A DNA stretch of 64,000 bases, from positions 434,001 to 498,000 of the forward strand of contig QPMI01000040.1 of NCBI GenBank assembly GCA_004431415.1, written 5' to 3'. The stretch is from Cyanophora paradoxa CCMP329 (taxonomy: Eukaryota; Plantae; Glaucophyta). The position numbers were made by a program, and so were the translations under genes. The notes beneath the pieces were generated by a model, which was not told where the DNA came from, ran no database searches, and was given only the letters and a program-made list of their open reading frames with translations. Below, one piece after another: positions 1 to 31,423 of the stretch (its first letter is position 1; each line of letters starts with the position of its first letter).

Positions 1-150
1 CCTCAGTTCATAAAGTAGATATTTGCAGTAGGTTGTCTTACCAGAATTGCTGCGCCCACATAATAAAAACCGAGTGCTTAATTTAACTGTTCTTGCAGGC
101 TCAAACTCCGGGATGTCATTCAAATCAATATCCATTCCTGTGTTATCCAT
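1..150 (-). CDS. A32/FtsK-like virion DNA-packaging ATPase, N-terminus (runs off the window)
   Basis: Manual translation from ATG at 150: MDNTGMDIDLNDIPEFEPARTVKLSTRFLLCGRSNSGKTTYCKYLLYELR. Hydrophobic strand followed by Walker A GxxxxGKT, directly downstream of the MCP. Confidence 0.85.
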   Translation of the reverse strand, partial: MDNTGMDIDLNDIPEFEPARTVKLSTRFLLCGRSNSGKTTYCKYLLYELR

Positions 151-259
151 TACAGTAATAAGATAAAAAACAAAATAAATTACTCAGCGCATGCAAGGCA
201 TGCTTGTCATGCCGACCCTACTAATTTTGAGCTTTCTACTATAACGAAAGAAAAGAACT

Positions 260-1486
260 TTAGAAGTTCGAGACTTTCAGGGTAGAGATGTTGTAGCCAT
301 TGAGGACCATAACATTGTGTCGTAGGGCATAGATATCAACCTGAACAGGAGCAGCATCAGTGCATCCCGAAACAGTGAGATCCATGTAACTGGAACTGCT
401 GTTGAAGAAATCCTGGTAACCCATAACACTGTTCCGAAGCGAATCTTTTCCAGATTTGGAAAGAACGATTCCGTAAATATTTCCATTCTCGAATCCATAA
501 GTAGTATTGCCAACAGTAACACCCTTGTAATGAGAAGGAATGTGATTGATAGCCGAGAGGAAACCGGAAATGGGTTTGTTAGAGATATCAAGGGAGCGAT
601 TGTTGTGGAAGATCTGGAACTGATCGATCTTAACATCCGAAACATGACCACAGAAATCCGAGTGAGTGTAGGTGTTAAGTTTGTTCACCTCTCGAACTGT
701 CATGAGAATCGAATGAACCAGACCAGAAACATTAGCGAGTGTCACCTCAACCGATTCACCAGCATCAGCGGTTTTAAGCGCTCGTGTCTTCTTGTGGATG
801 ACCTCTGTGATCGGAATGCGAATGCCACCTTGTTCATTTGCCATTTTCAAAAGTGTCTCAGCCTCAGCCGAAGCGATGTTTACAAATTGACAGATCAGGG
901 AGCAATCCGCAAATGTAACAGATCCACCAGCAGGAACTTTGACTATCCCAGCATCACGGAAATCAACCTCAATTGTTGGCATATCCGCCAGTGTGCATAG
1001 TGGGAAGTAAGCATCATCCCAGAAAGCAGCGGGGATTTTAACAATGTATTCCATAGCCTCATCAGTGCTTTCACGATCAAGTTCTTTGAAGTAACCAAGA
1101 GAAGCATACATGCTGCTCATGGTAGCATGATCATTATCAATCAGAGCGTTAACAGTAATCCAGTCACCAGGGATGATATACTTGAAACCACCATGAACAA
1201 AGCGAACCTCATTAATAAAGGAAGAACCACCATTAGGGAGGGTGCAGGCTACACCACCACCAGTGGCAATCTTGAAATAGAGCGAAACACCAGCAAGGAG
1301 TTGCTTACGAGGCAGATCAAAGTAAGCGGTATTCTTAAAGCCAAAAGTATTGCCTCGGGGGCGAACTTGCTCGAGGAATGGTTTGTACTTGGGGTTGGTT
1401 CCGATTTGGAGACCAGGGGATAGATAAATTTGATCGGAACCGGGAGTTACGAGGAGTTCCTTAAGGGTAGTTCCAGTGAGTGCCAT
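260..1486 (-). CDS. Double jelly-roll major capsid protein (408 aa)
   Basis: N-terminal 'FG..TAYFDLPRKQLLAGVSLYF' and 'FINEVRFVHGG...IPGDWI' match DJR-MCP patterns; 'YFPL...PTIEVDF'; beta-rich; size and context (between ATPase and penton). Confidence 0.85.
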   Translation of the reverse strand: MALTGTTLKELLVTPGSDQIYLSPGLQIGTNPKYKPFLEQVRPRGNTFGFKNTAYFDLPRKQLLAGVSLYFKIATGGGVACTLPNGGSSFINEVRFVHGGFKYIIPGDWITVNALIDNDHATMSSMYASLGYFKELDRESTDEAMEYIVKIPAAFWDDAYFPLCTLADMPTIEVDFRDAGIVKVPAGGSVTFADCSLICQFVNIASAEAETLLKMANEQGGIRIPITEVIHKKTRALKTADAGESVEVTLANVSGLVHSILMTVREVNKLNTYTHSDFCGHVSDVKIDQFQIFHNNRSLDISNKPISGFLSAINHIPSHYKGVTVGNTTYGFENGNIYGIVLSKSGKDSLRNSVMGYQDFFNSSSSYMDLTVSGCTDAAPVQVDIYALRHNVMVLNGYNISTLKVSNF

Positions 1487-1538
1487 CTCTTATGTTTAAA
1501 ATACCAAAAGAAATTTTTAAAATGCTTTATTAAACAGA

Positions 1539-2438
1539 ATGACGCGTCATTACCTTAATATTGATTCCAGGGACCGAGATGATGGAACCCCAACGAACTT
1601 CACTTACAAAATTCCCCATGCAATCCAAAATGTGAGAGCCTGCAGAGTGACTAACTTTGAGATGTTCAATAACATTTACAATCTTAGCGAGAATGGAAGT
1701 TTGATAACAGGAACCTATGATGCTGGAGATGTAATTAAGACCAAGAGTAACACTATTTCGAAAGGGACATATACTTCGGATAGTTTGGTGAATCTTCTAA
1801 ATGCCAAACTAGCTTCACAAGTGTACGGAGCAGCGGGAACTACATATACTCGCCATTTCTACGTTACATATGATCCTGTTACCATGTTTCTACGGTTCAT
1901 GTGCGATGCAACATTTACCCTCACCTTTGGAAGTCGGATCTTAGCGAACTTCCTTGGTTTCCCAGATCGCAGACCTGACAGTTCTGAAAATGGATACGCT
2001 TCTGCCCTGCTCGATTCACCTGTAACAGTTGGAGCTTATACTTATAATTACTACATTGACAGTGTTATACCGCTTGATCTTCTGTTCAATTCTTACATCC
2101 TTCTTCATGTTGACCCACTCAAAGGCAACTATGTAAGCAAGAACACCAGCGATGATAAAGCCCTTGCAAAAATCGAGATTGACCAAACGGTAGGCAGTCT
2201 GCTAAAATACGATTCATCGAATAATTCCATGATCCTGCATGAGCAAAACGGTTTGGTGGAAGTTGAAACGCTAAAAGTTCGTCTCACATACTGGAATGGT
2301 GCCGAAACGGATATTACCACTGACTGGTCGATGACTCTCGAACTCATTACGGAAGATGATAAAGATCTGACCAAGAAAGCATTGAAGAATGTCATTAAAG
2401 AGTTGGAGGGACTCTACTTGCCGTTCTCACGGTCATAG
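1539..2438 (+). CDS. Minor capsid protein (penton, single jelly-roll)
   Basis: N-terminal 'YLNIDSRDR...PTNFTYKIP..IQNV' and C-terminal 'LKVRLTYWNG.....DWSMTLEL' are typical of PLV/NCLDV pentons; divergent from MCP across 52 bp. Confidence 0.82.
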   Translation: MTRHYLNIDSRDRDDGTPTNFTYKIPHAIQNVRACRVTNFEMFNNIYNLSENGSLITGTYDAGDVIKTKSNTISKGTYTSDSLVNLLNAKLASQVYGAAGTTYTRHFYVTYDPVTMFLRFMCDATFTLTFGSRILANFLGFPDRRPDSSENGYASALLDSPVTVGAYTYNYYIDSVIPLDLLFNSYILLHVDPLKGNYVSKNTSDDKALAKIEIDQTVGSLLKYDSSNNSMILHEQNGLVEVETLKVRLTYWNGAETDITTDWSMTLELITEDDKDLTKKALKNVIKELEGLYLPFSRS

Positions 2439-2474
2439 GAAATACTGTAGAATAAATTTGTCTCGATATTACAA

Positions 2475-3221
2475 ATGGCTCGCAAGACTCAGCCCAAGAA
2501 TTTCTTAGCCAAACCAGTTGAGCAAGCAGAACCAGAACGGAAACAGTTTAAGAAATCGAAAGGAACCGCAGCATACGGAACTGGTGATCTCGATAAAAAT
2601 GTCCACCAGACCATGAATGCTCACACAATTGCGCTTACTTCAAACTCAAATGATGATAATGCCCTGGTTGACCAAGTCCCACTGAACCGCATGCCCGGAG
2701 CGAAACGAGGAATCAAGAAAGGGCAGTTCAAATCATCCACGAAGGACAAGGTTGCCTCATCATCGACACTGCTGAAACTGCTTGATGGTGGTGAGAGACT
2801 CTACTCAACCTATTCCGAGAAAGACCATCGCAACCGCTACTTTATTCGTTCAACCACTGGTGGACTGAAATCTGTGACATACCAGTATGCTAGGAGTCTT
2901 GTTGATGGCATTGCAGCAGAGACCAAAAACGAAAACAGGATCAAGGAACAGCCAATCACAAAGGAAAAGGTGGAGAAGAAACCAGAAGTAACCCATGAAG
3001 TCATCCCTGAACCTGTTCATGTTGCAAAAGAATCACCAGCCGAATTGATTGCAAAGACCATCGATTATCAAGACTCCAACAAAACGGATTTGCCGGTCCT
3101 CAATAAATCGATCCTCCGGGTTGCCACTTCGCAGGCTGATCCAGTCAACTCGATTCCAAATGCCGCCCCAATGGTCTCAGGGTTTGCCAAGCTCGGTATT
3201 AAACCTGGTTATCGCCGTTAA
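2475..3221 (+). CDS. Lys-rich hypothetical viral protein (possible virion core/DNA-binding protein)
   Basis: 248-aa ORF co-oriented with penton, viral-type composition, basic ends; no recognisable family. Confidence 0.6.
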   Translation: MARKTQPKNFLAKPVEQAEPERKQFKKSKGTAAYGTGDLDKNVHQTMNAHTIALTSNSNDDNALVDQVPLNRMPGAKRGIKKGQFKSSTKDKVASSSTLLKLLDGGERLYSTYSEKDHRNRYFIRSTTGGLKSVTYQYARSLVDGIAAETKNENRIKEQPITKEKVEKKPEVTHEVIPEPVHVAKESPAELIAKTIDYQDSNKTDLPVLNKSILRVATSQADPVNSIPNAAPMVSGFAKLGIKPGYRR

Positions 3222-3483
3222 GGATCAATCCCGAAATTAAAAAATCTTAAACATTGTTAGCGCTACGTAACCAATCTTATCCCGTAGGCTCAAACACTTT
3301 TTCATTTTTATGGAAGGCGTTGTAGAGCGAAGTGAAATATCCATAGGTAAATCACTTTAATCACCTGTTCTACCGGGTTCAGTGGTAGAAACTTGCAGCC
3401 GACAAGTGAACCTTCAAGGTATCGGTGGCTTTATCATTTTTCCAGCATCTTCTTTCGTACTGGATGCAATGCGATTGGGACCA

Positions 3484-3539
3484 AAAATTGATTGGGTTCT
3501 CACAAAGAATATATACACGACATAAAAACTACTTAAAGA
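3484..3539 (+). promoter_or_regulatory. Candidate early promoter: AAAATTGA (3484-3491) plus ACTTAAAGA (3531-3539)
   Basis: Exact mimivirus-type early promoter octamer upstream of ORF 3577; a similar bipartite arrangement lies upstream of pPolB. Confidence 0.5.
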
Positions 3540-3576
3540 TTTCTTAACATATATTAAGAGAGTAGAAAGGACAAGA

Positions 3577-3840
3577 ATGACGATCACAGAAGCCCAAAAG
3601 AAAGCAACTTACCGCTACCGTAAAACAGAAAAGGGTATGTTAGCGCTTGCTAGGATTAATGAGAAACGCAATGCAAAATGGAATGAACTCTATAACAATG
3701 ATGAAGAATTCAGACAAGCTCACATAATGACTTCATGCAAGGCTCAATATGTAAATAACACCATTCTCTATGTAAAGTATCTATTTGACATTCCTCGTAC
3801 TAACCGTGGACGTCCATCAAAGTATGTTAATGCTTGTTAA
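3577..3840 (+). CDS. Small basic viral protein with AT-hook-like RGRP motif
   Basis: 87 aa; 'TEAQKKATYRYRK' N-terminus and 'NRGRPSKY' C-terminus. Confidence 0.65.
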   Translation: MTITEAQKKATYRYRKTEKGMLALARINEKRNAKWNELYNNDEEFRQAHIMTSCKAQYVNNTILYVKYLFDIPRTNRGRPSKYVNAC

Positions 3841-3846
3841 TCGTTT

Positions 3847-3885
3847 TTCTCAGCGCGATTGCTCTGAGAACCCGCGGAAACCGCG
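3847..3885 (+). terminator. Twin hairpins just after the stop of ORF 3577 (candidate termination/polyadenylation signal)
   Basis: TTCTCAG(3847-53)...CTGAGAA(3864-70) and CGCGG-AAA-CCGCG (3873-85). Confidence 0.4.
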
Positions 3886-4008
3886 CTGGAAGCAAAACTA
3901 TAAATCTTTCTGTTATTTTTAGAGTTCGATGATCGAGCCAACCCTTTGTTATTTTTATAAATGCCCTCGACTGAATTTATTTTGTTGGAGACTTTTGGTT
4001 TTGCCGGT

Positions 4009-4041
4009 AAAATTTGACGCAAGTATAAAATGACTTAAGGA
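4009..4041 (+). promoter_or_regulatory. Candidate early promoter of pPolB: AAAATTTGA (4009-4017) plus ACTTAAGGA (4033-4041)
   Basis: Same two-part layout as at 3484-3539, about 30-65 nt upstream of ATG 4073. Confidence 0.4.
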
Positions 4042-4072
4042 AATAAAATATAGAGTATATATAAAAGTGAAA

Positions 4073-7000
4073 ATGCCTCGCGCAGTAAGTATTCAGAATG
4101 CGAGAAAGAGACAAGGAATGCTAGCAAAGCTTGGTTACCTTCTTGGTGCCGGAATCATAAATGAAGAGCAATTTAACGCATTGGGTTACTTTGCCTTCAT
4201 TAAGAGACTTCGATCTGCTGGTCTGAAGGACATAAGCGATACAATTGATGGTATTATTGCCAGGGGTGAGGGCAGACTGAATGAGCAGGATGAAATCGAG
4301 AGATTTGGTAACATTGAGGTTATTGAAGGTGGAAATAAGAAGACCAAAGCAGAGCGGATCGCTGAAAAACGAGACAAGAGAGCTGAACGGAAGCAGCAGA
4401 AGAAGCAGAAGAAAGCAGGGAGAACCGCTAAGAATGTTGAGAAGCAGAAGGTTAGAGAAAGAATAGCAAAGGAGGCAAAACAGCAGAGAGAGGATGAGAA
4501 GAAGCAACGAGAGGAGGCAGAGGTGATGCAGGCTATGAATAGTCTTGTAAGTGAGGTCACTTGGAGGAACCAGACCAAAGATAACATCGCTTCTGCCATG
4601 AGTTTATTGATAGGGTTGTTCGTTGGGATCCCTTTTACAATCGTTTTCGAGATGCTCTTCGTAACAGACGAGGTATTAAGTATAACCTCTACAGCATGGC
4701 GAGATATGTGAAAGTGGCAACTGGAGAAATAAGAACCATGCAATGGACCACCCCATTCTACCTTCTTGTCAATGATCAAGAGATTGTTGATACTGTTGAT
4801 GAATCAATTGATGCATTGCAGGAGGTTCTCACTTCACCTGATAGTTGGAAGCTAGAAAACATCTTAACAGTTCGCTTGCAGATTCTTACTTATCAGCCAC
4901 TCGCAGGTAGCTCCTATATTGACCTCCCACCAGGAATAAAAAAGCGTAAAGCTGTGATTAATCCACAGAACAAAGATAATAAATGTTTCGCATGGGCGGT
5001 AACTATTGGACTACATCAACATGAGCTATCTCATAAACACCGATATGATGTAAAGCGATACAAGAAGTATGAGAATGAGTTCAATTGGAATAAGTTTGAG
5101 TTCCCATTCAAGAATGATCCTCGTCAGTACGAACGAGCATCAAAAATGATTGGTCGACCAATCAATGTGTATATGGTCGATCGATCACATATCGTTCCAG
5201 TCCATATCTGTAAGGACCCATCCCAACAACATCTTACAATTGACATTCTTCTGTGGACTGTCAACGAAAAAACCCACTATGGTTACATTTCTAGCATGTC
5301 AAGGTTAATATCGAATTCACACCATGGAACTCGCCATTTCTGTAAAGCTTGTTTGAGAGGGTTCACAAGTGAAACAGTATTGGAGACACACATTAAACAT
5401 AACAAGTGTTACGATCGACCAAATGCAACAGTTGACACAATGCCACCGATTGGCTCTAAGACGAAGTGGGACCCAAAGAAACACATTGATAAGACTGTTT
5501 GGCATCCAATGTTCGTTGTTTCTGACTTTGAATGTATTTTGAAGAAGGTGGATGAGACACGAGGTGAAAACACTGCAGTCTACCAGAAGCACATTCCAAG
5601 TGGATACAAAATCATGGTTATCCACAACGAAGAGATTATAAAACAGGTATTGTATCGGAAGGAGAACCCAGAAAATGATGATGAGGTTACACAGCACTTT
5701 ATGGAGACACTGAAAACGATTGAATCCGATTTACTTGAGAAGCTTAGACATGTTGCACCAATGGTTATGGAACAATGGCACAAAGAGGATTACAGAGATT
5801 CTGTTGCTTGCTACATCTGCGGAGATGAGTTTGGAGCTACTATAACTGATGACAATGGTAACACATGTCAAGTTAAAAAGGTTAGAGACCACGATCACAT
5901 TACAGGAGATTACCTTGGAGCAGCTTGCAATACTTGCAATCTGAAACGAAAGATCAATCCAAAGATCCCAGTTGTGTTCCACAATCTAAAAGGTTATGAT
6001 GGACACTATATTCTGAAGGCTTTGAATTTCAATGAACCTGGTAAGGAAATTCGTTGCATTGCCCAGAATTTTGAGAAGTTCATAGCATTCGATATGGGAC
6101 CATACAAGTTCATGGACTCTTTGAATTTCATGGCTTCGAGCCTTGATGGTCTGGTAAAGAATCTCAGTAAGAATAATTTCAAATTCACCAATGAGTGGTG
6201 TGATTCTGTAAATTACTCACAGGAACAGCGAGAGCTACTGATGCAAAAGGGACACTTCCCTTACGACTACCTGGATAGCTTCGAGAAACTCAGTGAGACC
6301 CAATTACCTCCCAAAGAAGCTTTCTACTCGAAACTCAATGATACTGAATTAAGTGACTCCGACTACAAGCATTGCCAGAGGGTATGGGACGCTTTCAACT
6401 GCAAAACTCTCGGAGATTATCACGATATCTATCTTTCTACTGATGTTGCTCTGCTTGCTGACGTTTTCAATACATTCCGCAATGTTTGCTACAGTAATTA
6501 TAAGATCGATCCTATCCATTTCATTTCAGCTCCTCACCTGTCATGGTTCGCGATGTTGAAATATACAGGTGTGGAGTTGGAGCAATTGAGTGACCCTGAA
6601 ATGTATAGATTCTTTGAACTTGGAATTCGTGGAGGTGTTTGCATGGTTCCCAATCGTTATGCAGAGGCTAATAACCCCTACATGAAGTCTTATGATCCAT
6701 CAAAGTCAACAAAGTATATCACCACTTGGGATGCCAACAATCTGTATGGGAAAGCGATGAGTTTCAAGCTACCCAGAGGTGGATTTGAGTGGATTGATGA
6801 CATCGAGAATTTCGATTATATGGGCTTTGATGTGGAAGGTGATAGAGGTGCAACTTTGGAGGTTGACTTGGAATATCCAGAACACCTACATGATCTTCAC
6901 AGTGATTTACCTCTTGCTCCCGAATCTCTAATAATCACCAAGTCAATGATTTCACCAACACAGCTTGAAATGATTGGTGATGAAAAACTACCCCAGACTC

Positions 7001-8033
7001 GTAAGTTGGTTCCCAATCTGATGGACAAGACCAATTACATCCTACACATCAAAAACTTGCAGTACTACATCTCAAAAGGATTGAAGGTAACAAAGGTTCA
7101 TCGTGGGATTATGTATGATCAATCCGAGTGGTTGAGACCATACATTGATTTCAATACCGTACTGCGGACGCAAGCTCGTAACGATTTTGAGAAAGACTTC
7201 TACAAACTCATGAATAACTCAGTTTTCGGAAAGACCATGGAGAACGTTCGCAAGCGAAGTAACATAAAGCTTTGCAACGATCCGAGGGTGCAGCTCAAAC
7301 ACAACAGCAATCCGTTGTTGAAGACAGTGAAGATTATCAATGAGAATCTTACTGCTTTAGAGTTCTATAAGGGTTCTATAATGTTGGATAAACCCATTTA
7401 TGTTGGTCAGGCTATCTTGGATCTGTCCAAACTAATCATGTATCGTTTCCATTACGATTACATCATGGTGAAGTATGGACCTGGATCAGCCAAGCTCCTC
7501 ATGACTGATACAGATTCCCTGTATTATCTGATTGAGACTGATGATATCTACAAAGACATGATTGAGGATTCTCATTGGTTTGATCAGTCTGATTACAACA
7601 AATCCCACATCTGTTACAACCCTAAAAATAAAAAGGTTCCAGGTTTGTTCAAGGATGATTGTGGTGATTATCTCGTCACAAGGTTTGCAGGCTACAAACC
7701 AAAAGCATACTCCTACGAGAAGGAGTTGAATGTTAAGGCTCTTGGTCTTGAAGTTGCTGGTGATACAAAGACTGTGAAGAAGTTGAAGGGAGTTCAGAGG
7801 AATGTTGTTCAGAATAAATTGGAGTTCCAACAGTTCTACAACACTGTCATGAACCCCAGGTTCAGCAAGAATCTGTAACAGTTAGAGGCTTCCGATCAAA
7901 GAACCACGAGGTAACAACGCAGGAAATGAAGAAAAGGGCATTTAATGCGCTCGACACTAAGCGGTATCTTTGTGAGGATCTCTATACGACTCTTGCGATT
8001 GGACACTATAAAACAAAAACGACACTATTATAA
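4073..8033 (+). CDS. Protein-primed family B DNA polymerase polyprotein (putative terminal protein + vOTU-like region + C2H2 finger + exonuclease with EndoVII insertion + polymerase); two -1 frameshifts in the given sequence
   Basis: Motifs GSSYIDLP, NKCFAW...HYGYI, ExoI SDFEC, HDHITG..GAACNTCNL, ExoII HNLKGYD, WDANNLYG, KLMNNSVFGK, MTDTDS. The conserved C-terminal tail (FRSKNHEV...ALDTKRYL...TLAIGHY) continues in the -1 frame to TAA 8031-8033. The main frame is open upstream of 4696 back to ~4585 and overlaps ORF 4067-4711. Confidence 0.93.
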
Positions 8034-8035
8034 GG

Positions 8036-9093
8036 ATGGATCAGGTTTTGAGTTACACCAAGTATCGACAGAAATTGATTAAAGAAGGTGTCACATTTGA
8101 TGAGGAAGAACTAAGAAAGCGTTTTAAAAATCAAGAGATTGAGCAGATCTTTAAAAAGCCCAGAAAGCAAAAGTCTTTCTTGCGGATCGTTGCTCCACCC
8201 AATTCCTTTCAGGTTGATGTGATTTATTTCAAAAGCTACAAGACAGCAACACATGGAGTGGATAGGATGATGGGATTTGTCGATATATTGAGTCGGAAAG
8301 CATTTGTATACCCTTTCAAGCCAAAGGATTCGAAAATCGATATTTTCAACAGGTTCAAAGTTGAGGCAGGCAAGGTTAGTGCTATCTCAGGAGACAATGA
8401 GTTCTCTGCTGAGATTTATAGGAAATGGTGTGAGGAAAACAATGTAACTCTTTACACTGATGTAGCTAAGAATGACCACATCACAGTAGGTGATAAACTT
8501 GGTATTATTGATAGGTTTACCAGAACTTTCAAGCAATATTTGAGAAAAGCAATAGTTTCGAGTGGGAACCCCAAATGGACAGATTATTACAAGGAAGTTC
8601 TTTCAACTTATAACAACAGCCCACACACATCACTTAAGAATGATCCTCCCAATGCAGTTTACGGGAATAACGAGAAAGAATCGTTTATATATTTGCGTGA
8701 TGCATTGCATAATAAGCGTGTTAAAGAAGGTAGCCCAACAGTAAAGGAGGGAGATTATGTTCGAGCTGTAACTGAAAAGAAGACTTTCGATAAAGAAGGA
8801 GCAAGATACAGCAAACAGGTGTATAAAGTAGCAGGCAAGGTAGGTAATCGATTCAGTTTGTTGGAAGAGAATGAGGGAGAGAGTCCAAAAGAAGTGAAAC
8901 GAAACTTTAAACTGAACGAGTTGCAAAAAGTAGATAAGGCAGCAATTGTTAAGATTCCCACACAGAAGCGTGTGGAGCGAGTGAAAAAACAACAAAGGTG
9001 AATAGATTAGTAGCAAAAGAGGGTATCAAGCCCAATAGGAGCAAAGTAGTTAGGAAGAGGTATAATTTAAGAAGCGGTTTGACTAGGCGTTAG
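8036..9093 (+). CDS. Retroviral-type (rve) integrase; C-terminal tail in the -1 frame
   Basis: FQVDVIYF / ISGDNEF / GIIDRFTRTFK core, YNNSPHTSL..PP, SH3-like 'GDYVR...KKTFDKE...YS..VYKV'. The -1 frame from ~8995 reads KVNRLVAKEG...RKRYNLRSGLTRR* (TAG 9091-9093). Confidence 0.92.
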
Positions 9094-9452
9094 GTTGTAA
9101 GGTATGAGCCATCTTTCGATTCAACAATTTTCGTGATAGGTCTAAACACTTTGAAAATTTCTTTATTATGGATTCCTTTAACATACCAACCCTTATTAAT
9201 GGGATCCCATCTGAGACCATAAGATTTCGCTAATTGGATATCTTTGAAAGCAACTTGACAATACATTTTAACATTAATGTATTTGATTTCGTCTTCGGTT
9301 AGTTTTCGGAATTCTTTGAAGATCTCACTGTTTTCATCTTCAACAAACCATAGCTTCTTTTCAAAATCCCATTTTGCGCCTTTTGATTTCACGGATTCAC
9401 GATCATCATATCGAGAGAAAATGTAAAAGCGTTGTTGTGGCTTGGTTTCCAT
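9090..9452 (-). CDS. Tandem DUF5710-like domain protein
   Basis: Two copies of the Y...F/Y.D...K..G.(K/R)WD...K.W(F/Y)V motif: 'YDDRESVKSKGAKWDFEKKLWFV' and 'FKDIQLAKSYGLRWDPINKGWYV'. Confidence 0.8.
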   Translation of the reverse strand: METKPQQRFYIFSRYDDRESVKSKGAKWDFEKKLWFVEDENSEIFKEFRKLTEDEIKYINVKMYCQVAFKDIQLAKSYGLRWDPINKGWYVKGIHNKEIFKVFRPITKIVESKDGSYLTT

Positions 9453-9512
9453 TTTTATTCAGATTATCAGATTATTTTTATATGAAACAATCAATGAGGA
9501 ATAACCGAGATT

Positions 9513-9845
9513 ATGATATAACATCGATTGTTGTTACTGAGGCTTACTGAGATTAAACGTTTTGTTTTGTGTGGTTACTGTGAATGGTTTGTTTTTGTCG
9601 AAACGTTTGTGGAATATCGAAAAGTTTAAAGTTTATTCGATTTTATTACCATATATAATCTCGTGGGGCAGTATGCCAATGATATAACATCGAATTTTGT
9701 AAATGATGCTTACTGAGATTTACTGAGATTGGTGATTGGGTTACTGAGAATGGTTTGTTTTGTTGAAATGTTTGTTGAAAACATGAAAAAATGAGAGTTT
9801 ATTCGATTTTATTACCATATATAATTTCGTGGGGCAGTATGCCCA
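9513..9845. repeat. Two imperfect ~166-bp tandem repeats in the viral terminal region (probable TIR)
   Basis: Units 9513-9678 and 9679-9845 both start ATGATATAACATCGA and end GTTTATTCGATTTTATTACCATATATAAT(C/T)TCGTGGGGCAGTATGCC; internal TTACTG(A/T)G iterations. Confidence 0.88.
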
Positions 9846-9862
9846 ATTTACATTTTTTTACT

Positions 9863-12800
9863 ATATTGGATTCACCACCCCGGTCGTGAATCCAAGCAGG
9901 ATCTTGTAAGCCCAGCCGCTCATGCTAGCGCTGCAGCAGATCTCGATCTGACTAGCTTCGCAGCGAAATTGATCTTGCTGTAAGCTCGAGCTCCAGGGTC
10001 GGGCGAACCGTCATTTCAATCTCCACCTCAGCCATCACTACAGGTTCATGGTGTTCGTGTCTGCGAGCTAGTTATATGTGCTGAATTTCAGCCAGACGTC
10101 AATCCGGCCATGTTTGCGTGCGGAAATCTGCTGGTGGATGCAACGCGCAACCGGCGCCCTTACATCATTGATCCGAGTAGTGCGTTTAGCGTTAAAAACT
10201 TGAAGATATGTAGAGGAATCTGAAGCTGATGCCATTTTCAGGCGGCTCTATTGTCGGCAGCCCTTCAAACATACAAATGACCGGCATCGCCTTCCCCTTG
10301 AGGAGAGCAGCTCTTGGCTCGGATCCGACCCTGTGCACCTTGTGCGTGCACCTCTCGAGCTTAAGCTTGCTTTAATTTGTGAGCTTAAGCTTGCCGGCCG
10401 ACGCCCGCATCAGGATCGCTGTTGGTGGAGACGTCGCCGGTACCGGAGCCACCGCGATCCAAATGCGCGGTTCGCTTAAATCGCATGTTTGAGTTCTAAT
10501 TCACAATATCAAAATGTAATTAATAAACATCTCTGCACAGGGACGTACCCTGGATGGAACCTGCCGGTGGTGGCCTCCGTGAAAGCTATGTCGACGGGCT
10601 CGCGCTCCGCCACCGTTACCATAAACTTTGCTTGGAACGCGGGCGTGGAACTGACCAGCGCATCGGCGAGCTGCATTCCCTTGGCTGGAGGGCCTGCTGA
10701 TTGGACTGCGTCCGCGGCAGTGCCCGCAGGGACACGCTCAGGGCCACTTACGCTAGCAGCGGGTGGGCTGCAGCCGAATGTGTCGTACGCGTGTTGGGCG
10801 AATGCCTCGAACAGCGTGGGGACCTCGGCCAGCGTCTCTTCCGCGCAGTTTCGGACGACTGCCGAAGCGCCTGCCGCCGTCGGCATCGCCACGCAGAACG
10901 TCCAGGCAACCGCGGCAGAGCTTGTCGTGACGTTTGGAAGTACCGGAGGGTCGACCATTACTTCCGCTGCCGCGAGCTGCACCCTTCTTGACTCTACCGG
11001 CGTAGTCTGGAGCGCATGGATTGCAGTGACGTCGCCGGTTGGCGCCAACTTTACGGCAACCGGACTGGCGTCGAACTCAACCTATAGCTGCTCGTCCAAC
11101 GCTACAAACCTGATTGGGACGTCCCCGAATTCGAATGTCACATTCACAACGCTCGTGCTCACGGAGACGCCGAGCCCGAGCCCGTCGCCCAGCCCGTCGC
11201 CGACGGAGACGCCGAGCCCGAGCCCGTCGCCCAGCCCGTCGCCGACGGAGACGCCGAGCCCGAGCCCATCGCCAAGCCCGTCGCCGACGGAGACGCCGAG
11301 CCCGAGCCCGTCGCCCAGCCCGTCGCCGACGGAGACGCCGAGCCCGAGCCCATCGCCAAGCCCGTCGCCGACGGAGACGCCGAGCCCGAGCCCGTCGCCC
11401 AGCCCGTCGCCGACGGAGACGCCGAGCCCGAGCCCGTCGCCCAGCCCGTCGCCGACGGAGACGCCGAGCCCGAGCCCGTCGCCCAGCCCGTCGCCGACGG
11501 AGACGCCGAGCCCGAGCCCATCGCCCAGCCCGTCGCCGACGGAGACGCCGAGCCCGAGCCCGTCGCCCAGCCCGTCGCCGACGGAGACGCCGAGCCCGAG
11601 CCCGTCGCCCAGCCCGTCGCCGACGGAGACGCCAAGCCCGAGCCCGTCGCCCAGCCCGTCGCCGACGGAGACGCCGAGCCCGAGCCCGTCGCCCAGCCCG
11701 TCGCCGACGGAGACGCCGAGCCCGAGCCCGTCGCCCAGCCCGTCGCCGACGGAGACGCCGAGCCCGAGCCCGTCGCCCAGCCCGTCGCCGACGGAGACGC
11801 CGAGCCCGAGCCCGTCGCCCAGCCCGTCGCCGACGGAGACGCCGAGCCCGAGCCCGTCGCCCAGCCCGTCGCCGACGGAGACGCCGAGCCCGAGCCCGTC
11901 GCCCAGCCCGTCGCCGACGGAGACGCCGAGCCCGAGCCCGTCGCCCAGCCCGTCGCCGACGGAGACGCCGAGCCCGAGCCCGTCGCCCAGCCCGTCGCCG
12001 ACGGAGACGCCGAGCCCGAGCCCGTCGCCCAGCCCGTCGCCGACGTCGACGGAGACGCCGAGCCCGAGCCCGTCGCCCAGCCCGTCGCCGACGGAGACGC
12101 CGAGCCCGAGCCCGTCGCCCAGCCCGTCGCCGACGGAGACGCCGAGCCCGAGCCCGTCGCCCAGCCCGTCGCCGACGGAGACGCCGAGCCCGAGCCCGTC
12201 GCCCAGCCCGTCGCCGACGGAGACGCCGAGCCCGAGCCCGTCGCCCAGCCCGTCGCCGATGGAGACGCCGAGCCCGAGCCCATCGCCCAGCCCGTCGCCG
12301 ACGGAGACGCCGAGCCCGAGCCCGTCGCCCAGCCCGTCGCCGACGTCGACGGAGACGCCGAGCCCGAGCCCGTCGCCCAGCCCGTCGCCGACGGAGACGC
12401 CGAGCCCGAGCCCGTCGCCCAGCCCGTCGCCGACGGAGACGCCGAGCCCGAGCCCGTCGCCCAGCCCGTCGCCGACGGAGACGCCGAGCCCGAGCCCATC
12501 ACCCAGCCCGTCGCCGACGGAGACGCCGAGCCCGAGCCCGTCGCCGAGCCCGTCGCCGACGGAGACGCCGAGCCTGAGCCCGTCGCCCAGCCCGTCGCCG
12601 ACGGAGACGCCGAGCCCGAGCCCGTCGCCCAGCCCGTCGCCGACGGAGATGCCGAGCCCGAGCCCGTCGCACAGCTCGACCCCGCTTCCGAAATCGCAGT
12701 CGTCACCTAGCCCGAGCCCATCGCCAAGCCCGTCTCTTTCGCCGCCTACGCCCATACCGACTGCTCCTCCGCCGGCTATAATCGTCGCGCAAGAAGCTGT

Positions 12801-15800
12801 CGTCTACAATCCAGAAGCCATTGCAGGAGCTTCAGAGCTCGTGACCCGCATTTCCGCCCTGTCGGTCTTCATCGCCCCCCCGAAGGTCATCAGCGATACT
12901 GTGGCGTCCGACAGCTCTTCCAGCGGCGCCCCACGCAGCCTAAAAAGTGTCGCCGTGCTCGAGTATTACTTCAGCTCCGCCACTGACCCGCAGAGCCGCA
13001 CGGTGCGCGTGAATTGAGTTTTTTCGAACTTCCAGAATCGCAGAGAACTTACATTCTTATAATTACGCGCACCAGACGTTCGATTCGCTGCTGGAGAGCC
13101 TCTCGGGGAGCTCGCCGGAACTTTTCGGCGTGTATGAGGTGACGAGGCCCGGCGCGCCGGGCTACGTCAACGTCAACTCGGCATACCCCTTTGCCGGGGC
13201 GGCCCTGCTGACGAACGTGGTGGGCACGCTCACGTACGACCCCGACTGGGGCTCGTTCGCCGCCGTCGCCGCTGCCATCTTTGACGCAACGGGATTTCGC
13301 CCCGCCGCACTCTCCGTGGCCACGCCGCGGCGTGCCCTCCGCCAGTACTCGCGGTCCGCCGTTCTCGTCTCCTTCGGCAGCACTGTCGGCGCCCTACAAG
13401 CCGCCAAGAAGGCGCGTCGCTTTCCCCTCACTGATTCGTCTTCGCTAAAGCGGCTAGTAGACGCTGGCGCTCGTCGCGAGCTGCATGCTCGAGCCCGTGT
13501 ACCAGTTCGAGCTGGACAGCGAGCTGGCGCAGAACCCGTGCCTTAACTTTACCACCGATGCTACCCTCCCCATGCCTGGTGCGGCTTGGATCGGCAGCAT
13601 TACTATGTGCCGTGATCGATATCGTGACCGCGCTTCGCACGGCCCCGCAGCGGTCAAGGCGCTGGGGCGGCAGGTCGACCTGGCCACCAACGACACGGCC
13701 TTGGCGGGAGCGATTTTTTCCCTGCTGAGCGTGCCGGGCGATGGTGATGCGACCTCGCTCGGGCTCGTGGCGTCGCGGCGGCCCGCCGCCGGCGTCGTGC
13801 TGCGGGGCGAGAGCGCCGCGGAGACGCTGCGCGCGCCAGGCGCGGGCGATCGCGAGGCTGTTTGTGCCCTCTCCGACGGGCGCGAGTGGCTCTTCTTCGT
13901 CTTTGGCTCGGACTCGGACGGCGCGAGCGTCTCTGCAACGAGCGCCGCAACGCTGCGAAACTTCACGCTGCCCTCTTCGGCGCTGCCGCGGCCCGCCGCC
14001 TGCGCCGCCTTCGACGGGCCCTTCTCGCTCGTGGTCGGCACGCGGGAGCCGCGGCTGCATCGCGTGCGGCTGACGGGCGACGGCCTCGCGAGCGAGCCGA
14101 TCGCGTGGACGCTGCCCAGCGCGAAGCCGGTCGTGCTCGGGGAGCGCGCCCGCCAGCCGCCGGCCGCCGCCTCGCGCGCCGTCTTCCTCCAGTCCGACGA
14201 TGCCGCGAGCACCGGCGGCGGCGCCTGCAACGCCGCCGACGCGTCCGTCTTCCTCCTCGTCGTCGACCGCTCCGGGGCGGTGCGCAGCGTCGCGGGCGCC
14301 CTCCCCGGCCTCTGCCCGCAGGCCCTCGCAGTCTCTCCCGACGAGTCCGCCGCGCTCGTCCTCGTCGCCGGCGGGCGCCTCTTCCGTGCACCGCTGCACC
14401 CGAACGCGACGGGCGGCCTCCGCGAGCTGCCGGGTCCCAACCGAATCCCAGGCGGCGGTGCGCTCGCCTCGGTCATCTTCCTCGCCAGCCGTGCGTACGC
14501 TGTCGGCGCCGTCGTCGGGAGCGAGCTGGCGGCGGGGCCGCGCCTGTGCCTCCTCTCCGTGCTGGAGGGCGAGGTCGCCGCCTCGACCTGCTTCGACCTC
14601 GAGCTCCCAAGCGCGGGCGTTGCCGGCGCCGCCGCTCAGGTCGCACTGCAGGCCGCGCGCCCGGCCCGTGCGTTCTACGTGACCCTTGGTAGGCTCCTGG
14701 TGCCCCTGCGCGCCGAGGCCGGCAGCGTCCGGCTGCTGGGGGGCGCCGGCACGAGCGCGCAGCTCGGCTCGAGCCTTGTGCTGGAGTACATGGTGGGGGG
14801 CTTCAACCTGGAGACGCGGGTCAAGGTCGTGAGCGCGGCCAACCTGCGCACCGTCTACAGCTTCGCGGCGAGCAACCCGGAGGGGAGCTGGCGGGCGGCG
14901 GGCCGCCGGGCGACGGCCATCCCCCTCCGCGCCCCCTTCTTCGCCGTCGGGGGCAGCTACGCGGTCGTGGTCTGCCTTGAGCTTGACGAGGCGTGCAGCC
15001 CGCCGGGGCTGCACTTCAAAGTCCGCGACGCCGCGGGTGCGGTCTTCGATTCCCATCAGCCCTTGACGCTGCAAAGAACGCTGCTGCCCTTGACACGCGC
15101 GCGCGGCCGCCGGGCAGGCTCGGACACGGGTCCCGCGCGGTCGGTGCTTCTCCGCCTCTCCGCGCTGCGCTCGTACGTCGGGGGCCGGCTCCAGGCGGTA
15201 CTCGACGGCGTCTCCCTCGAGTCGCCCGTGCGGGGACAGTCCGCCGTGCGCCGCCCCGCGTTTGTGAAATTGCTGCTCTGCTTGGCGAACAAAGGATCGT
15301 GCAGCGCGTCGTGAGCGAGGGGGATGCGGCGGTGAACGCGAGCTTCTATTGGAACGACCCCGCGCGCTGGGCCGCCGCCAGTTCGTATCCCCCGCCTCCC
15401 CTTCCCACTTCCCTCTCCGCCCACAGCCAAAGCAGGCGGCCCCGGGCGGGCGGTGCACTTCCGCTTCGAGAAGGGGCCGGGCCGCTGGCGCCTCGCGTCC
15501 ATTCTGGCCGCCGATGCCACGGGGGTGCGCGAAATGCTTGATTTTCGCGCGCGTGCGAAAGAGTCCGAGCCTCGAATTTCGCAGGAGCTGCTCCAGTGGG
15601 TCGCGGGCTACAACGCCGACGCCCCCTCGGCGGCGCTGGGCAGCGCCCTTGAGTGCGGGGCGCTCAACGTCACGCTCGTAGCTGCCGGCTCGGCGGCCCC
15701 GCGGGGATGGCTTGCCCTCTCCAACTTCAGGATGTTCGCCTTTGAGGCCGCCGGGGGTACGTATACGGTTAGATTGGCGGTTTTCCGCTCAAGCGTGCTT

Positions 15801-25767: not shown

Positions 25768-26714
25768 GGTGGCGCTGAGGCCGCCGCGCAGGGGCCGCCC
25801 TCCGCGCCGGAGGCGGACCTGGTGGTTGAGGACGTAGAGGTGCTCGACCGGATCGCGCGCCCCGCTACGCCCGCGCGCCTCCGCGCCGGCACCGGCGGGC
25901 GGTCGAGGTGCGTTCCGGGATCCCCCGCGCCCGCCGCGCCCGCCCGCCGCCGCGCCGCGCCTCTCATCGGCGCGCGGCAGCCCGCGGAGCGCCGCGACGG
26001 TCACCGCGCCCCCGAACGAGGACGAGGCGCGCCCCGCGGGGTACAGCGCCAAGCACATTGTCGTGATGTAGACTAGCTATAGTATACGTAGGGGTACAGC
26101 ACTTCGCATTCGCAGGACGTACTATTCCCGGAATGCTGCAGCACAGTATTTATTAAATTTCGAAATCATCGGATAGTGCTTTTTTTTGTTTCAGATACGT
26201 ATATATATTTATACTTGGAGGGGCGACTCCCCCAATAGGGCCGTCCCCTGTAGCTCTAGATGTACAGTTTCAAGTTTTCAACTTTTTGAAGCCTTTAATG
26301 GACCGAAGACCGGAATCGATAGCGATGATCGTCAGCTACGCCCGCGGGGCATTAATATATTCCAATGATTGGTCCCTATGGTCATGGGTTCCGGAACGCT
26401 GACACGACGCTCGCGATCGACGACGAGCAGAGGCATGCGTAGTTCGTGACTGTTCGTCGCCACGTGCACCGTGCACGTCGGCAGTCCAAGTTCGGATACG
26501 TATACTATAGTCGTATGCTGCATATTTATACACTACTATGATAGCCTGGTTCTAGATCTGGCCATGAGATCCTGATTTTCGGAAGTATGATTGGACTGTA
26601 CATGCACCGTAGCACTGCAGCTATACATGTTTGCCGGTATCCCATTCCCCGCCCACCCTATGCCGCCCCCCTGACATCCATCCGGGGCAGCCCGCCCGGC
26701 GGCCCGCCGGCTGC

Positions 26715-29700
26715 TCAGGTCGCGCGCCCGCCGGCCGCCGCGAGCCGCCGGATGTGCTCCGCGAAGCTGCGCATGCGGCGGCTCGGCTCGGATCTGCGCG
26801 CGTACGGGGCGGGGCGGGGCGGGGCGGGCGCGCCTGGAGTTCTTGATGAGGTCCTCGAGGTCGCAGTGCACGCGGAAGGCCCAGTTGTGCTGCGGGCCCC
26901 TGCCCGCCCCGCCCCGACTTAGCCGGGCCTCGCAGGGAAAGAGGGCCGGAGTGGACGGACCCGAGCTCGGGGGCGTTGATCTGCTCCTCGGCGGGGTGCC
27001 CCGGGCGCCTCGCGTCGGCCCGCACGGCCATGAGGTCCTGGATGGGGAAGACGGCCCACATCGAGGAGCCGGCCATGTGCGCCGCCACCACCTAAGGAAA
27101 AGACGTAGGCGTGAGCCGCCAGCTAGCTAGCTCTCGGGGGGCGGGGGGCGGGGGCGGGCCTTCTCGGCGAGCCAGGGCTCGCAGAACTGGGGCGCGGGGC
27201 CCGGGGCGCGGAGGACCTCGTTGAGGAGGCGCTGCCGCTGGCTGGCGTCGAGGCGCTCCCACCAGAGCCGCAGCGGCGCCGTGTCGTGCGTCGACGTGCT
27301 GCACACCGTCCCGTACCTGAGGACAGGCGTGAGCGAGCGGCGAGGGGGTGCTGGGGGGCCGGGCGGGCGGGCGGGCGAACGGGTAGCGCGAGGGGTCGCC
27401 GAAGGGCTCCGGACCCGTCGGGAACCTGCGGCGGGGTACGGTTTGAAGGCCGGGGACAGGGAGGGGGGCGGCGGGGGGTACGGGGCGCGCCGCTGGATGC
27501 GGAGGCCCAGGATCGAGTGCCGGTCCAGCGTCCGCGGCACGCAGGCCGGGATCATCCCTGCCGGGGGTATCGATTTCATCGATTTTTGCGGAGGGGATGG
27601 AGAGGGGAGGGGTACCGAGGTCCTCGGCGAAGGCGAGCATGGGGCTGGCCGCCTGCGCGCGCTCAGAGGCTAATTGGGGGTGGGGGAGAAGGCCGGGGGG
27701 TAGGCCCGCCTTAAGCATTGGGAGCTTCTCGTCGGCGCTCGCCTCCCACGTCGCGTCCTGCCTGCGGGGGTACGGGATTAGACCGAGGGAGGGGGGGGGG
27801 AAGGAAGGCCCCCGGGGTACGGCCGCCGCACCGGCGCCAGCAGTAGTCGTCGGCGAGCTTGGCGAGGGCTGGCTTCCAGGCGGCAGGGAGCTCCGCGAAC
27901 GAGCGCGAGTCCTGCTCACGCACGCGCCGGCCGCCTCAGCGGGGGCCCGGGCCGGGGCCGGGGGCGCCTGGCGGGCGGGCCTGGATGCGGAAGCGGGGGT
28001 GGAAGGCCTTCGGGTCCTCGTCGTCCTGCCCGGGGGGTACGCGGTCGATTTGGGCCGGGGGTACGCGATCATCGGACGAACGGGGATGAGGACGACGGAT
28101 CCGAGGGCGGCGAGGAGGGTCTCGAGCGTGTAGTCGCGCTCGCGCCGCTCGGCGTCGGTCGCCCACGCCGGCAGCCGGTCCAGCTCCTTGAAAATCTTCT
28201 CCTCTGATGATCACATATCGCATTAGAAGATTATATTAGATTAGTATCCATCCTGTTAACAGGCACCGGTGTCGAAGCAGGGCTTGAAGCGGAGGCGGTC
28301 GCCGCCCGCGGGGGCCGCCTCGAACCACTTGGCGAGGACGTCCCCCGCGCGCCCGCCGAAGGCCTCCTCGACGTGCTGCCGCCGCACGAACGGCGCGCTC
28401 AGGCGCTCCAGCTCCGCGGGGGACGTCCTGCGCCCGGTCGGCGGGGCGGCGGGGCGGGCGGGCGGGCGGGCGCACCCGACGCCGGCGGCGGCGAGCTCGG
28501 CGACCGAGAGGGGCCGCGCGGGGCGGAAGCGGCCCATGAGGCCCCGCACGCAGCTCCCGGGCACCTGCGCGCAGCGACCGTCAGCTCGAGGCGGGGCGAG
28601 GCCCGGCCGGGCGGATCTCTAAATATAGATCGCGGGGGTACGCGCCTCGTAGATGCGGAAGAAGCCGAGCACGTGGTCGATGCGGTACGCGTCGAAGTAC
28701 TGAGCCATGTGCTGCGCGCCGGCGGGGTCAGCTGAGAGCGAGAGACGGGTCGGAGGCTCGCTCGCCTGCATGCGGCGGCGCCACCAGCTGAAGCCGGCGG
28801 CGCGCATGGCGCCCCAGTCGTACGTGGGGAGGCCCCACTGCTGTCCCCAGAAGGAGCCGCCGTCGGGCGGCGCCCCCGCGCTCGTGTCCATCTTGAAGAG
28901 CTCCGGGTGCACCCTGCGAGGAGCCTTTCTCAGGGGTACTGCAGCGCTCGGCTTCGAAGAGAACGACAAGGGGTACCAGGTGTCGACGCAGAAGCGGCCG
29001 ACGCCGATGGGGAGGTCCCCCTTGAGGCCGACGCCGCGGGCGCGGGCGTGCCGCGAGGCCTCCAGCAGCTGCCGGTGCGCGTGCCACTGCGCCCACGCCC
29101 AGAACTCCACGTCCGCCGCCTCCGCCGGGCACGCCCGCGCAGCCGGAGCCGGAGCCGGAGCCGGAGCCGCCTCCTCGGCGGCGGCCTCGGGGGGTACGTC
29201 GACCGCGGACGTCATCGCGTACACCTCGGCGAGGGTCGGGTGCACGAGGCCGGCGCCCCACTGCGGACCGCGTCAGGGGCTACAGGGAACGGAGCGGGGG
29301 TACGGGGGCGGACCGCGGTGTAGTCGCACGTCTTCTTGGCCTCGCGCAGCGCCGAGAAGAGGGCGTACGGCATCAGCCAGTCCCGGTTCGCGGACTGGTA
29401 CCCCCCTTCCGTCTCAGCCGGGGGTAGGGAATCTAAAGGGGGGAAGGGAGAAGGGGGTACGCGCCTTGAACGCGCGGTACTCCGGGTCCTGGACCTGCGC
29501 CCCGCGCATTTCCTCGAAGGCGCGCTGCGGTACCCCCTGTCAGGGCGGGAGGGGGGGGAGAAGGAATGTGGAAGGGGGGTAGGGGCACCCGGAGAAGTCC
29601 CATCTTGGCGCCCTGGACGGCGGTGTAGTCGAGGCGGCCCTTCTCCAAGCCGCCCTTGGCCTGCGCGCCGCCCGGCTCGGCCCCGCCCAGCCGGGGTACG

Positions 29701-31423
29701 GAGTACATGGTACGGGTACGCACGTCCTGGATGGATTTCAAGAGGCCCGGGGAGAGGGAGCCCGTGGCCTGCAGGCGGATGTAGAGGGGGTGCAGAGCGA
29801 ACGAAGAGATCGCGCTGCGGTGCGTATCCACCCCGAGTGAGGCGCGGCGGGGCGGCTCGGGCGCAACGCGGCCGCTCTCGCCTGTAAGGAGATGCGTCGT
29901 GCCTGGGGCCGGGCCGGCGGGAGTCAGACGCGCGAGGCGGGCCCAGCTCGCAGACGAGGGGGGCGGGGGGTACCAGTCGTGGAAGTTGGTGGTGTCGTTG
30001 ACGGGGAGGATCTTCGGGAGGGGGTGTAAGACGGGGGTACGAGGGGCGGGGAGGGGGTACAGGGCGCGGCGTCAGCGGACCTGAACGAGCTTCAGGCCTG
30101 CGGAGAGAAGAGAATCAGGGGCGCACAAAGGGGCGAGGGGGCGCGCGTGGGAGGGGCGCGGAGGCGGCGCGGCGGAGGGCGGACCGGCGTCGCGGCACCA
30201 GTCGGCGAGGAGCTGGAGGTCGGGGAACTCGCCGATGCCGCACGAGGCGCGGGAGCGCAGCGCGAAGACGGGCGCGGCCACGCCGGCCGCGCGCCACGCC
30301 GCCGCCCGCGCGTTCCGCAGCGAGTCGTAGTGCACGACCGCCGCGGAGGCGGCGAAGGCTGAGAGGTCCGAGAAAGGGTCGGCGGAGGCGGCGGGGGCGG
30401 GGGCGCCGGAGAGGGAGAGGGCGGCTAGGGCCGCCTCGGGGCCGCCGGGGCCGGCGCAGAGGCGCTTGAGGACGGCGAGGGACTCGCCGAGGCGCCCGGC
30501 GGTGATCTGCCGGTTCGGGTCCGCCTCCCACGTCACGTCCTTGCGATCGGGCCCGGCGAGGATAAACTTGTACTCCAGCGGGGCCGCCAAGTCGGCCTGC
30601 TCGGGCAGCAGTCAGGGGCGGGCCGGGGCGGCGGCGGCGGCGACGACGACGGCGACGCGGAGAGATTTGATCGCGCGCCTTGCGAAGGAGGAGGTCGGCG
30701 TGCCACACGTGCGAGTCCGGGTCGCAGCTGCGCGAGCGAGCGAGCTCGGCGGGCGTCGCGGCGGGCGTCGCGGCTGAGCGGCCGGGAGGGGCGCGCGGAC
30801 CTGAGCGCCACAGCGTTGGCGGGCTGCCACTTGCCGAGCAGCGGCGAGGAGCCGACGGCGAAGACGCGGCGCCCCTGCAGCGTCGTGGCGTTCGCGGGGG
30901 CGGAGACGGCGAGCCGCACGAGCACGGCGCCCTCCGCGCCGCCCTCCGCGCCCACGAGCGGGATCTCCGTGCGCTCCACAGGCGGGAACTTCACGCCGAG
31001 GACCGCCTCCATCAGCTCGTTCTGGAACGCCTCCGGCAGCTCCGCGCTCGCCGCCCTGCTCGTGTACACGTCCTCCACGATGACGTTGCGCTCCGCAAGC
31101 CGCCCGAGGAATGTTGCAGCAGCCCGCGTCGTGCCTGCGCGCCCGCGCGGCCGGGGAGGGCCGGGCCACCGTCAGATTCAAGTCGCGTACGTGCTGGTCA
31201 GACGGGCCGGACCTCGCTCGGCGGCGCCTGAAGCCGAGCGCACGCGAAGCTCGTAAGCAGCTCCATCCTCCGGGAGCTTGGCGAGAAAGGCCGGTGTGCC
31301 CTTCCCAGTCGGGAGCGACTCAAGGGGCGAGTCGCCGCCGACGACCGCGCAGAGCGTGTCGCCCTCCTGTAAGTTTGTCGGCAAGGGCGCCTTGACGAAG
31401 ATCTGCCTGGACGCCTTCGTCAT
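26715..31423 (-). CDS. DPE2: 4-alpha-glucanotransferase, DPE2 type (GH77 with N-terminal CBM20), multi-exon
   Basis: CBM20 'VFAVGSSPLLGKWQ...LEYKF...VTWEADPNR'; GH77 motifs 'GVAAPVFALRS...GIGEFPDL', 'LKGDLPIGV', 'GAPPD....GQQWGLPTYDW', 'YFDAYRIDHVLGFFRIYE', 'AEDLG', 'STHD', 'PIQDLM', 'EQINAP', 'NWAFRVH'. Confidence 0.93.

Follow-up and report, generated by a model that had tools for sequence, protein, structure and literature searches.

Integrated small viruses with giant-virus promoters are already known, and there is thus precedent for the proposal, made in the first-pass annotation of a 64,000-nucleotide stretch of the Cyanophora paradoxa genome (hereafter, the window), that a small viral element at its left end may be transcribed by a co-infecting giant virus of the Imitervirales and could serve as an inducible antiviral defence. 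The locus raises the question of whether the motifs upstream of two of its genes, ORF3577 and the gene for a protein-primed DNA polymerase B (pPolB), are promoters of the giant-virus type and, if so, which of the motifs carries the signal. Here, we compare the two sites with chance expectation, with sister copies of the element, with related elements, and with giant-virus contigs.

Setting and predicted genes of the element

The AT-rich element occupies the window from position 1 to ~9,900, with 40% GC compared to ~70% GC in the host, and is, to judge from its gene complement, the right-hand part of a Polinton-type virus integrated in the genome of this glaucophyte alga. At least half of the words of the element were present in 14 sequencing runs of one organism, and several subtypes were found among the DNA contigs, indicating that the element is multi-copy. 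The likely right end lies at 9513..9895 (no strand assigned), where a 166-nt unit occurs twice in tandem, together with a terminal hairpin (z −2.45), with the GC content rising to ~70% beyond. Directly adjoining the insertion is a host ORF with a long Ser-Pro-Thr repeat (10588–13017). Farther along, the window contains an intron-rich host gene (26700–31420, minus strand) that, on the basis of its motifs, we take to be 4-alpha-glucanotransferase-like; the host gene for ribosomal protein S15a (32083–32590, minus strand), an exon of which is identical to a EukProt entry and has its next named match in Cyanoptyche (87%), in line with a glaucophyte host; an ORF with a Cys-His knuckle-like motif that is possibly a remnant of a retroelement gag (49395–50372, minus strand); and, at 54779–64000, open frames of more than 3,000 codons on both strands, built of 171- and 306-nt repeats.

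The structural module is at the left. The start of a predicted A32-type packaging ATPase (1..150, minus strand), cut by the window edge, contains a Walker A motif and gives a weak match to Pox_A32 (E = 0.04) on a 50-aa piece. The predicted double-jelly-roll major capsid protein (260..1486, minus strand) reaches an Atlas score of 0.98 to clusters with Capsid_N in 10–18% of their members, though recognition is low and the single-sequence model has a pLDDT of only 29.8; no homolog of this protein was detected in viral contigs, metagenome contigs, or a protein collection (4,653 candidates of a 5.8-billion collection). Major capsid proteins of virophages (Maveriviricetes) are ~600 aa long, compared to 408 aa here, and the nearest Atlas clusters are of the Capsid_N or Capsid_NCLDV type; by its predicted capsid protein, the element is not a virophage. 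The adjacent gene (1539..2438, plus strand) is predicted to encode the penton (minor capsid) protein, with an Atlas score of 0.98 to viral hypothetical clusters, a call that also leans on its position and on an N-terminal motif that we take to be that of Polinton-like pentons.

The remaining genes include the two with the upstream motifs. ORF3577 (3577..3840, plus strand) encodes a basic protein of 87 aa that belongs to no family and diverges strongly between subtypes. The pPolB gene (4073..8030, plus strand) is read in three frames, with breaks near 4580 and 7860; we infer that ORF4073 is its N-terminus, and its total length fits the 1166–1400 aa of most relatives. The protein is 41–52% identical to its matches, several of which carry PF03175. 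Next to it, an rve-type integrase (8036..9080, plus strand, with a frame break near 8983) has no direct Pfam match and was identified through a homolog, an L003 protein scoring PF00665 (E = 4e-35). PDB searches with the integrase and with the pPolB alignment yielded no match. The last gene (9090..9452, minus strand) encodes a DUF5710 protein (Pfam E = 2e-15). The element thus combines the protein-primed polymerase, in broken frames here, with the rve integrase, both of which count among the hallmarks of Polintons and Polinton-like viruses, and the pairing of a capsid protein that has no detectable homolog with a polymerase 41–52% identical to Maverick-type enzymes makes its genome a mosaic.

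Two upstream sites and their second box

Upstream of ORF3577, the exact mimivirus-type early motif AAAATTGA lies at 3484..3491 (plus strand), 93 nt before the ATG at 3577, and ACTTAAAGA lies at 3531..3539 (−46), within the longer box AAAAACTACTTAAAGA at 3524..3540 (plus strand). Upstream of pPolB, the early motif has one base changed, AAAATTTGA at 4009..4017 (plus strand), 64 nt before the ATG at 4073, and ACTTAAGGA lies at 4033..4041 (−40), within the box TAAAATGACTTAAGGAAA at 4026..4043 (plus strand); an AT-rich TATATA tract at 4041..4065 (plus strand) reads as the mimivirus late consensus with one mismatch. All four motifs occur once within 1–9900, and none of them is present before the ATPase, capsid, penton, ORF2475, integrase, or DUF5710 genes. 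The first-pass annotation had placed the motifs before ORF3577 and pPolB and not before the capsid genes, and these positions were confirmed; given that the motifs are also absent before the integrase and DUF5710 genes, they mark two of the four non-structural starts.

The early motif, on which that annotation had relied, is at chance level when taken alone. Exact AAAATTGA occurs once compared to 1.49 expected in the shuffled element, and once (at one of eight starts) compared to 0.14 expected in the 8 upstream windows (p = 0.13), so that the anticipated enrichment over a shuffled background was absent. Nor is it enriched in related elements, where it was found in 4 of 299 upstream regions compared to 5.2 expected, and before 1 of 40 pPolB genes compared to 0.63 expected. 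At −93, the motif is also far upstream by the giant-virus standard (7 of ~120 AAAATTGA sites are at −90 or beyond, with a median of −57). A mimivirus early promoter is marked by the exact AAAATTGA no more than 150 nt from the start codon; such a site is present before ORF3577, and before pPolB only in one low-depth sister contig, from run X1. The variant of the window, AAATTTGA, occurs in giant-virus upstream regions no more often than expected (13 compared to 14.6 of 782).

The main signal is the second box, AAAA(C/T)(A/T)ACTTAAAGA, and not the early motif. The pattern ACTTAA[AG]GA, which was chosen post hoc, occurs twice in the 8 upstream windows compared to 0.026 expected (p = 0.001). When the window was scored with a matrix built from 54 giant-virus sites, the core of which was seeded from the window motif, the positions 3525 (score 20.4) and 4027 (17.2) ranked first and second of 19,766, with the next best position at 9.0; the flanks scored separately were also significant (p = 0.0007 and p = 0.0006, respectively). 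Both boxes are in the right orientation and within range, yet farther from the ATG than the median (−46 and −40 compared to −33). The AGG variant of the box shows no enrichment upstream of giant-virus genes (1 compared to 0.8 expected). Chance matches in AT-rich intergenic DNA would account for AAAATTGA taken alone, but the gap in matrix scores, the two flank-only p-values below 0.001, and the correct orientation and range make chance a very improbable explanation of the two sites as a whole.

A late motif common to all structural genes was also considered, on the basis of W8-TCT look-alikes, and judged weak: only the look-alike before the capsid gene comes near the scores of giant-virus sites (12.1, ~25th percentile of these). 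The best late-type site of the element is in the 52-nt region 1487–1538 between the divergent capsid and penton genes; the coding sequence on either side diverges, but the region itself can be aligned to the sister subtype of highest abundance, with 9 differences in 60. The hairpins after ORF3577 and after the capsid gene fall short of significance (z −1.7 and −1.5).

Comparison of the sister copies points to both sites as conserved upstream signals of the multi-copy element. In DNA contigs matched at 80%, the subtypes align at 3485–3516, 3539–3568, and 3971–4047, and not across the body of ORF3577. The match of one sister contig stops at 3491, the end of AAAATTGA, beyond which it diverges, and another keeps 3485–3516; in diverged sister contigs, the retained sequence extends across both the second box and the TATATAT tract. 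The summed depth of sister contigs is highest at 3516–3577, a value that fragmentation can inflate, and given that differences near contig ends are unlisted, these alignments do not prove the invariance of each letter of the boxes.

Such conservation bears on whether the promoters could be relics of a past dependence on giant viruses, homogenised among the copies by recombination and now out of use. The three frame breaks of the window copy, its non-canonical early motif before pPolB, and the failure to find a close relative of the element in viral or metagenome contigs would all be compatible with decay. Across subtypes, however, conservation is higher in the promoter pieces than in the adjacent ORF, and one-base insertions in sister contigs beside the last two breaks (7860 and 8983) imply that these breaks may be copy-specific or assembly errors; overall, we regard the relic explanation as quite unlikely.

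A separate intergenic stretch of 53 nt at 3355–3407 is also kept in the distant subtypes (7–8 differences), contains two small hairpins, and reaches a depth of up to 4,020 in a run guessed to be RNA. Identification as a tRNA or a known RNA was rejected (no ARAGORN gene, no credible Rfam match, fold z of −0.9 to −1.7); a small RNA, a signal for a 3' end, and a tiny ORF are candidate readings of the stretch.

The box in giant-virus contigs and related polymerase genes

The giant-virus set was assembled by scanning for the two boxes with a start codon downstream. The scan yielded 80 loci, of which 20 are named as giant-virus bins; one overlapping locus, one locus with neither motif, and every upstream region holding the searched arrangement were left out. 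A first composite scan had returned mostly coding-sequence matches; 30 of 120 were in non-coding sequence and had an ORF starting no more than 60 nt away. In the 20 bins, ACTTAAAG is found upstream of 10 of 228 genes compared to 1.0 expected, at a median of −35, and AAAATTGA upstream of 41 compared to 5.0 expected; the other 58 loci (579 genes) gave 18 compared to 1.9 for ACTTAAAG and 83 compared to 12.1 for AAAATTGA. The box consensus in this set is AAAA(C/T)(A/T)A(C/T)TTAAAGA. The 15-mer occurs 4, 3, 0, and 12 times in the whole bins G001–G004, respectively, whereas the reversed control is missing from all four. The set had been picked for containing such a promoter, and the matrix takes its core from the window motif; independent evidence therefore comes only from the flank test, the positions, and the pPolB test.

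The pPolB test drew on 111 loci from an alignment search, namely, 31 viral loci and the best 80 of 570 metagenome loci. The 299 upstream regions came from 29 of the 31 viral loci, and 40 of the 111 loci had a full-length pPolB and 110 nt upstream. These loci are distant relatives, with 33–51% identity and no capsid protein detectably shared with the window. The box, at a score of at least 12, precedes 8 of the 40 full-length pPolB genes compared to 0.07 expected, and the 12-mer of the window's pPolB box recurs identically before pPolB in L023. In the 299 regions, GACTTAA occurs 11 times compared to 2.7 expected, with most occurrences between −50 and −30; for the mimivirus late consensus, there are 23 occurrences compared to 1.3 expected. 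In an unselected scan with the pPolB 17-mer pattern, 39 of 113 usable viral loci had an ORF start 8–50 nt downstream compared to 12 in the opposite direction.

Two of the related loci merit separate mention. L008 is a contig with pPolB and integrase of the same clade that is named as part of a giant-virus bin. L003 (7511–9313 and its other starts) belongs to the same pPolB clade and has AT-flanked TCT(A/T) before most genes; one of its proteins, of 600 aa and with no Pfam match, we take to be virophage-capsid-like.

Among the 20 genes behind the box that were scanned against Pfam, 15 had matches, including deoxynucleoside kinase, D5-type primase, RNase H, DnaJ, RING, Bro-N, HNH, GIY-YIG, LAGLIDADG, DUF559, and two topoisomerases II, the latter being searched-for promoters and not independent examples; none was a capsid gene. 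Because the box precedes genes for DNA metabolism and mobile nucleases and no scanned capsid gene, we infer that it is a middle-stage promoter. Mobile nuclease genes are often behind the box, so that it may travel with them. In six loci (L244, L255, L259, L296, L316, and L349), copies of the box are paired, either inverted or in tandem, an arrangement suggestive of bidirectional promoters.

A signal before the polymerase gene and one small gene of the element that also precedes giant-virus genes was likely built for giant-virus machinery. We therefore consider that there is a somewhat better than even chance that both sites act as promoters of the giant-virus type, each combining an early-type motif with a middle-stage box, through which a co-infecting nucleocytovirus would be able to express the polymerase and ORF3577 before the capsid module. 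Each site would consist of the early-type AAAATTGA, exact or one base off, the nearer box, and then the TATATA tract; the RNA polymerase of the co-infecting virus would read both sites, with the middle-stage box turning on the polymerase and ORF3577 first, while the capsid module has no more than a weak late-type signal. The idea of giant-virus-type promoters thus survives through the ACTTAAAGA box, with its top two matrix ranks and its retention in sister copies, whereas the early motif does not sustain it. The further attribution to Imitervirales as the transcribing virus is not supported, as AAAATTGA is not specific to that group, being present also in pacmanvirus, according to the part of the source consulted (PMC11788076).

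A broader and more tentative proposal, possible but in our judgment less likely than not, is that many giant viruses use the box, at about −35, as their hitherto missing middle-stage promoter, that the pPolB-integrase clade of Polinton-type viruses tuned its polymerase gene to this box, and that the element is the trace of an undiscovered glaucophyte giant virus, possibly one that persists in the culture and drives the sister copies seen in the putative RNA. We know of no described glaucophyte virus. The box is also a candidate for an undescribed class of intermediate promoters, offers a way to match Polinton-like viruses to their helpers by sequence, and points to contact of glaucophytes with giant viruses.

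Sister-copy depth and comparison with known systems

Several sequencing runs were guessed to be RNA, a label that is not recorded for any run, and their contigs carry neither strand nor transcript start. Sister subtypes were found in three such runs (X15, X17, and X19) and, at lower depth, in X22. A 96% relative of 7200–9677 had contig depths of 146–482. A more distant subtype, with its full promoter outside the read part, reached a depth of 3,213 where pPolB begins and of 7,685 where the capsid gene begins, whereas pieces of the window's own subtype were at a depth of ~3. This distant subtype is minor in DNA (13.6 compared to 31 in X1, but 3,213 compared to none in X17), and the depth along pPolB drops from 146–482 to ~3; both features fit RNA better than genomic DNA. 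One 2.6-kb contig from a run guessed to be RNA spans 7200–9677, from the end of pPolB through the integrase and the convergent DUF5710 gene into the end repeats, and its depth falls leftwards; it may represent read-through or a transcript directed inward from the end.

The high depth of sister subtypes argues against strict silence of the element. It would also suit real promoters read by the host RNA polymerase II, with the element being an autonomous or constitutively transcribed nuclear virus and its giant-virus likeness reflecting shared ancestry or an exchange of small genes together with their promoters. Along with the high-depth contigs in three samples, the subtype ratios that differ from those in DNA runs, the fall in depth along pPolB, and the TATATA tract after the box are all consistent with host transcription, as is the expression of capsid genes of cryptophyte Polinton-like viruses where a giant virus was not found, in the portion of the report consulted (PMC12220804). 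Against this stand the positioning and enrichment of the box in giant-virus bins, before deoxynucleoside kinase, primase, and topoisomerase II genes, and the lack of any site above 9.6 in the GC-rich host part of the window; moreover, with a guessed label and contigs that give neither start nor strand, high depth does not establish transcription by the host polymerase from these boxes. We judge host transcription rather improbable and retain the co-infecting nucleocytovirus as the preferred reader of the two sites.

Elements similar to that in the window have been described in several protists, and capsid transcripts are reported in 88 protist transcriptomes in the consulted part of one survey (PMC10120064). 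The animal Mavericks and adintoviruses share the pPolB clade (43–46% identity to coral and mollusc matches) and the adjacency of pPolB and integrase; unlike them, the element resides in an alga and encodes a capsid protein that did not match their DJR Pfam family. Mavirus and the EMALEs of Cafeteria are likewise AT-rich, multi-copy, integrated in a GC-rich protist, equipped with pPolB and rve integrase, and share a promoter with giant viruses, but the EMALEs are virophages with the late TCTA motif of CroV and, in the excerpts at hand, silent in uninfected cells (PMC8547959, PMC10945749). In contrast, the capsid protein of the window element, at 408 aa, is not virophage-like by Atlas, and its sister copies appear to be transcribed. 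Halocafeteria virophages also have a CroV-like late motif, as far as the source consulted goes. The Tetraselmis Polinton-like viruses resemble the element as an endogenous algal family with several subtypes, but differ in that induction by TetV-2 and defence were shown experimentally and no common motif was seen in the part of the preprint considered (10.1101/2025.10.09.676808).

PgVV-14T, or Gezel-14T, a Polinton-like virus dependent on Phaeocystis globosa virus (PgV), is likewise a small capsid-coding algal element with a AAAATTGA-type motif before the polymerase and other non-structural genes. In the available part of its description, the PgV early motif precedes five genes including the polymerase, and PgVV differs in having these five upstream sites, a TVpol, a tyrosine recombinase, and a known helper (10.1101/2022.07.28.501842). 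The window element has no known helper and instead combines pPolB and an rve integrase with one exact early motif and a stronger second box.

Mimivirus promoters provide both the exact early motif AAAATTGA seen before ORF3577 and the late consensus, with one mismatch, seen before pPolB, but the ACTTAAAGA box was not found there; within the parts of these sources consulted, a review states that none of the intermediate class had been reported for mimiviruses, and two later transcriptome studies give no new motif (PMC5294985, PMC11464507, PMC11998528). No description of the box was found in the published texts searched, and motif logos in figures and supplements, for EMALE types, mesomimivirus motifs, and lake virophages, could show one. 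What is new relative to these systems is a specific second box common to giant-virus contigs and to one in five of the related polymerase genes.
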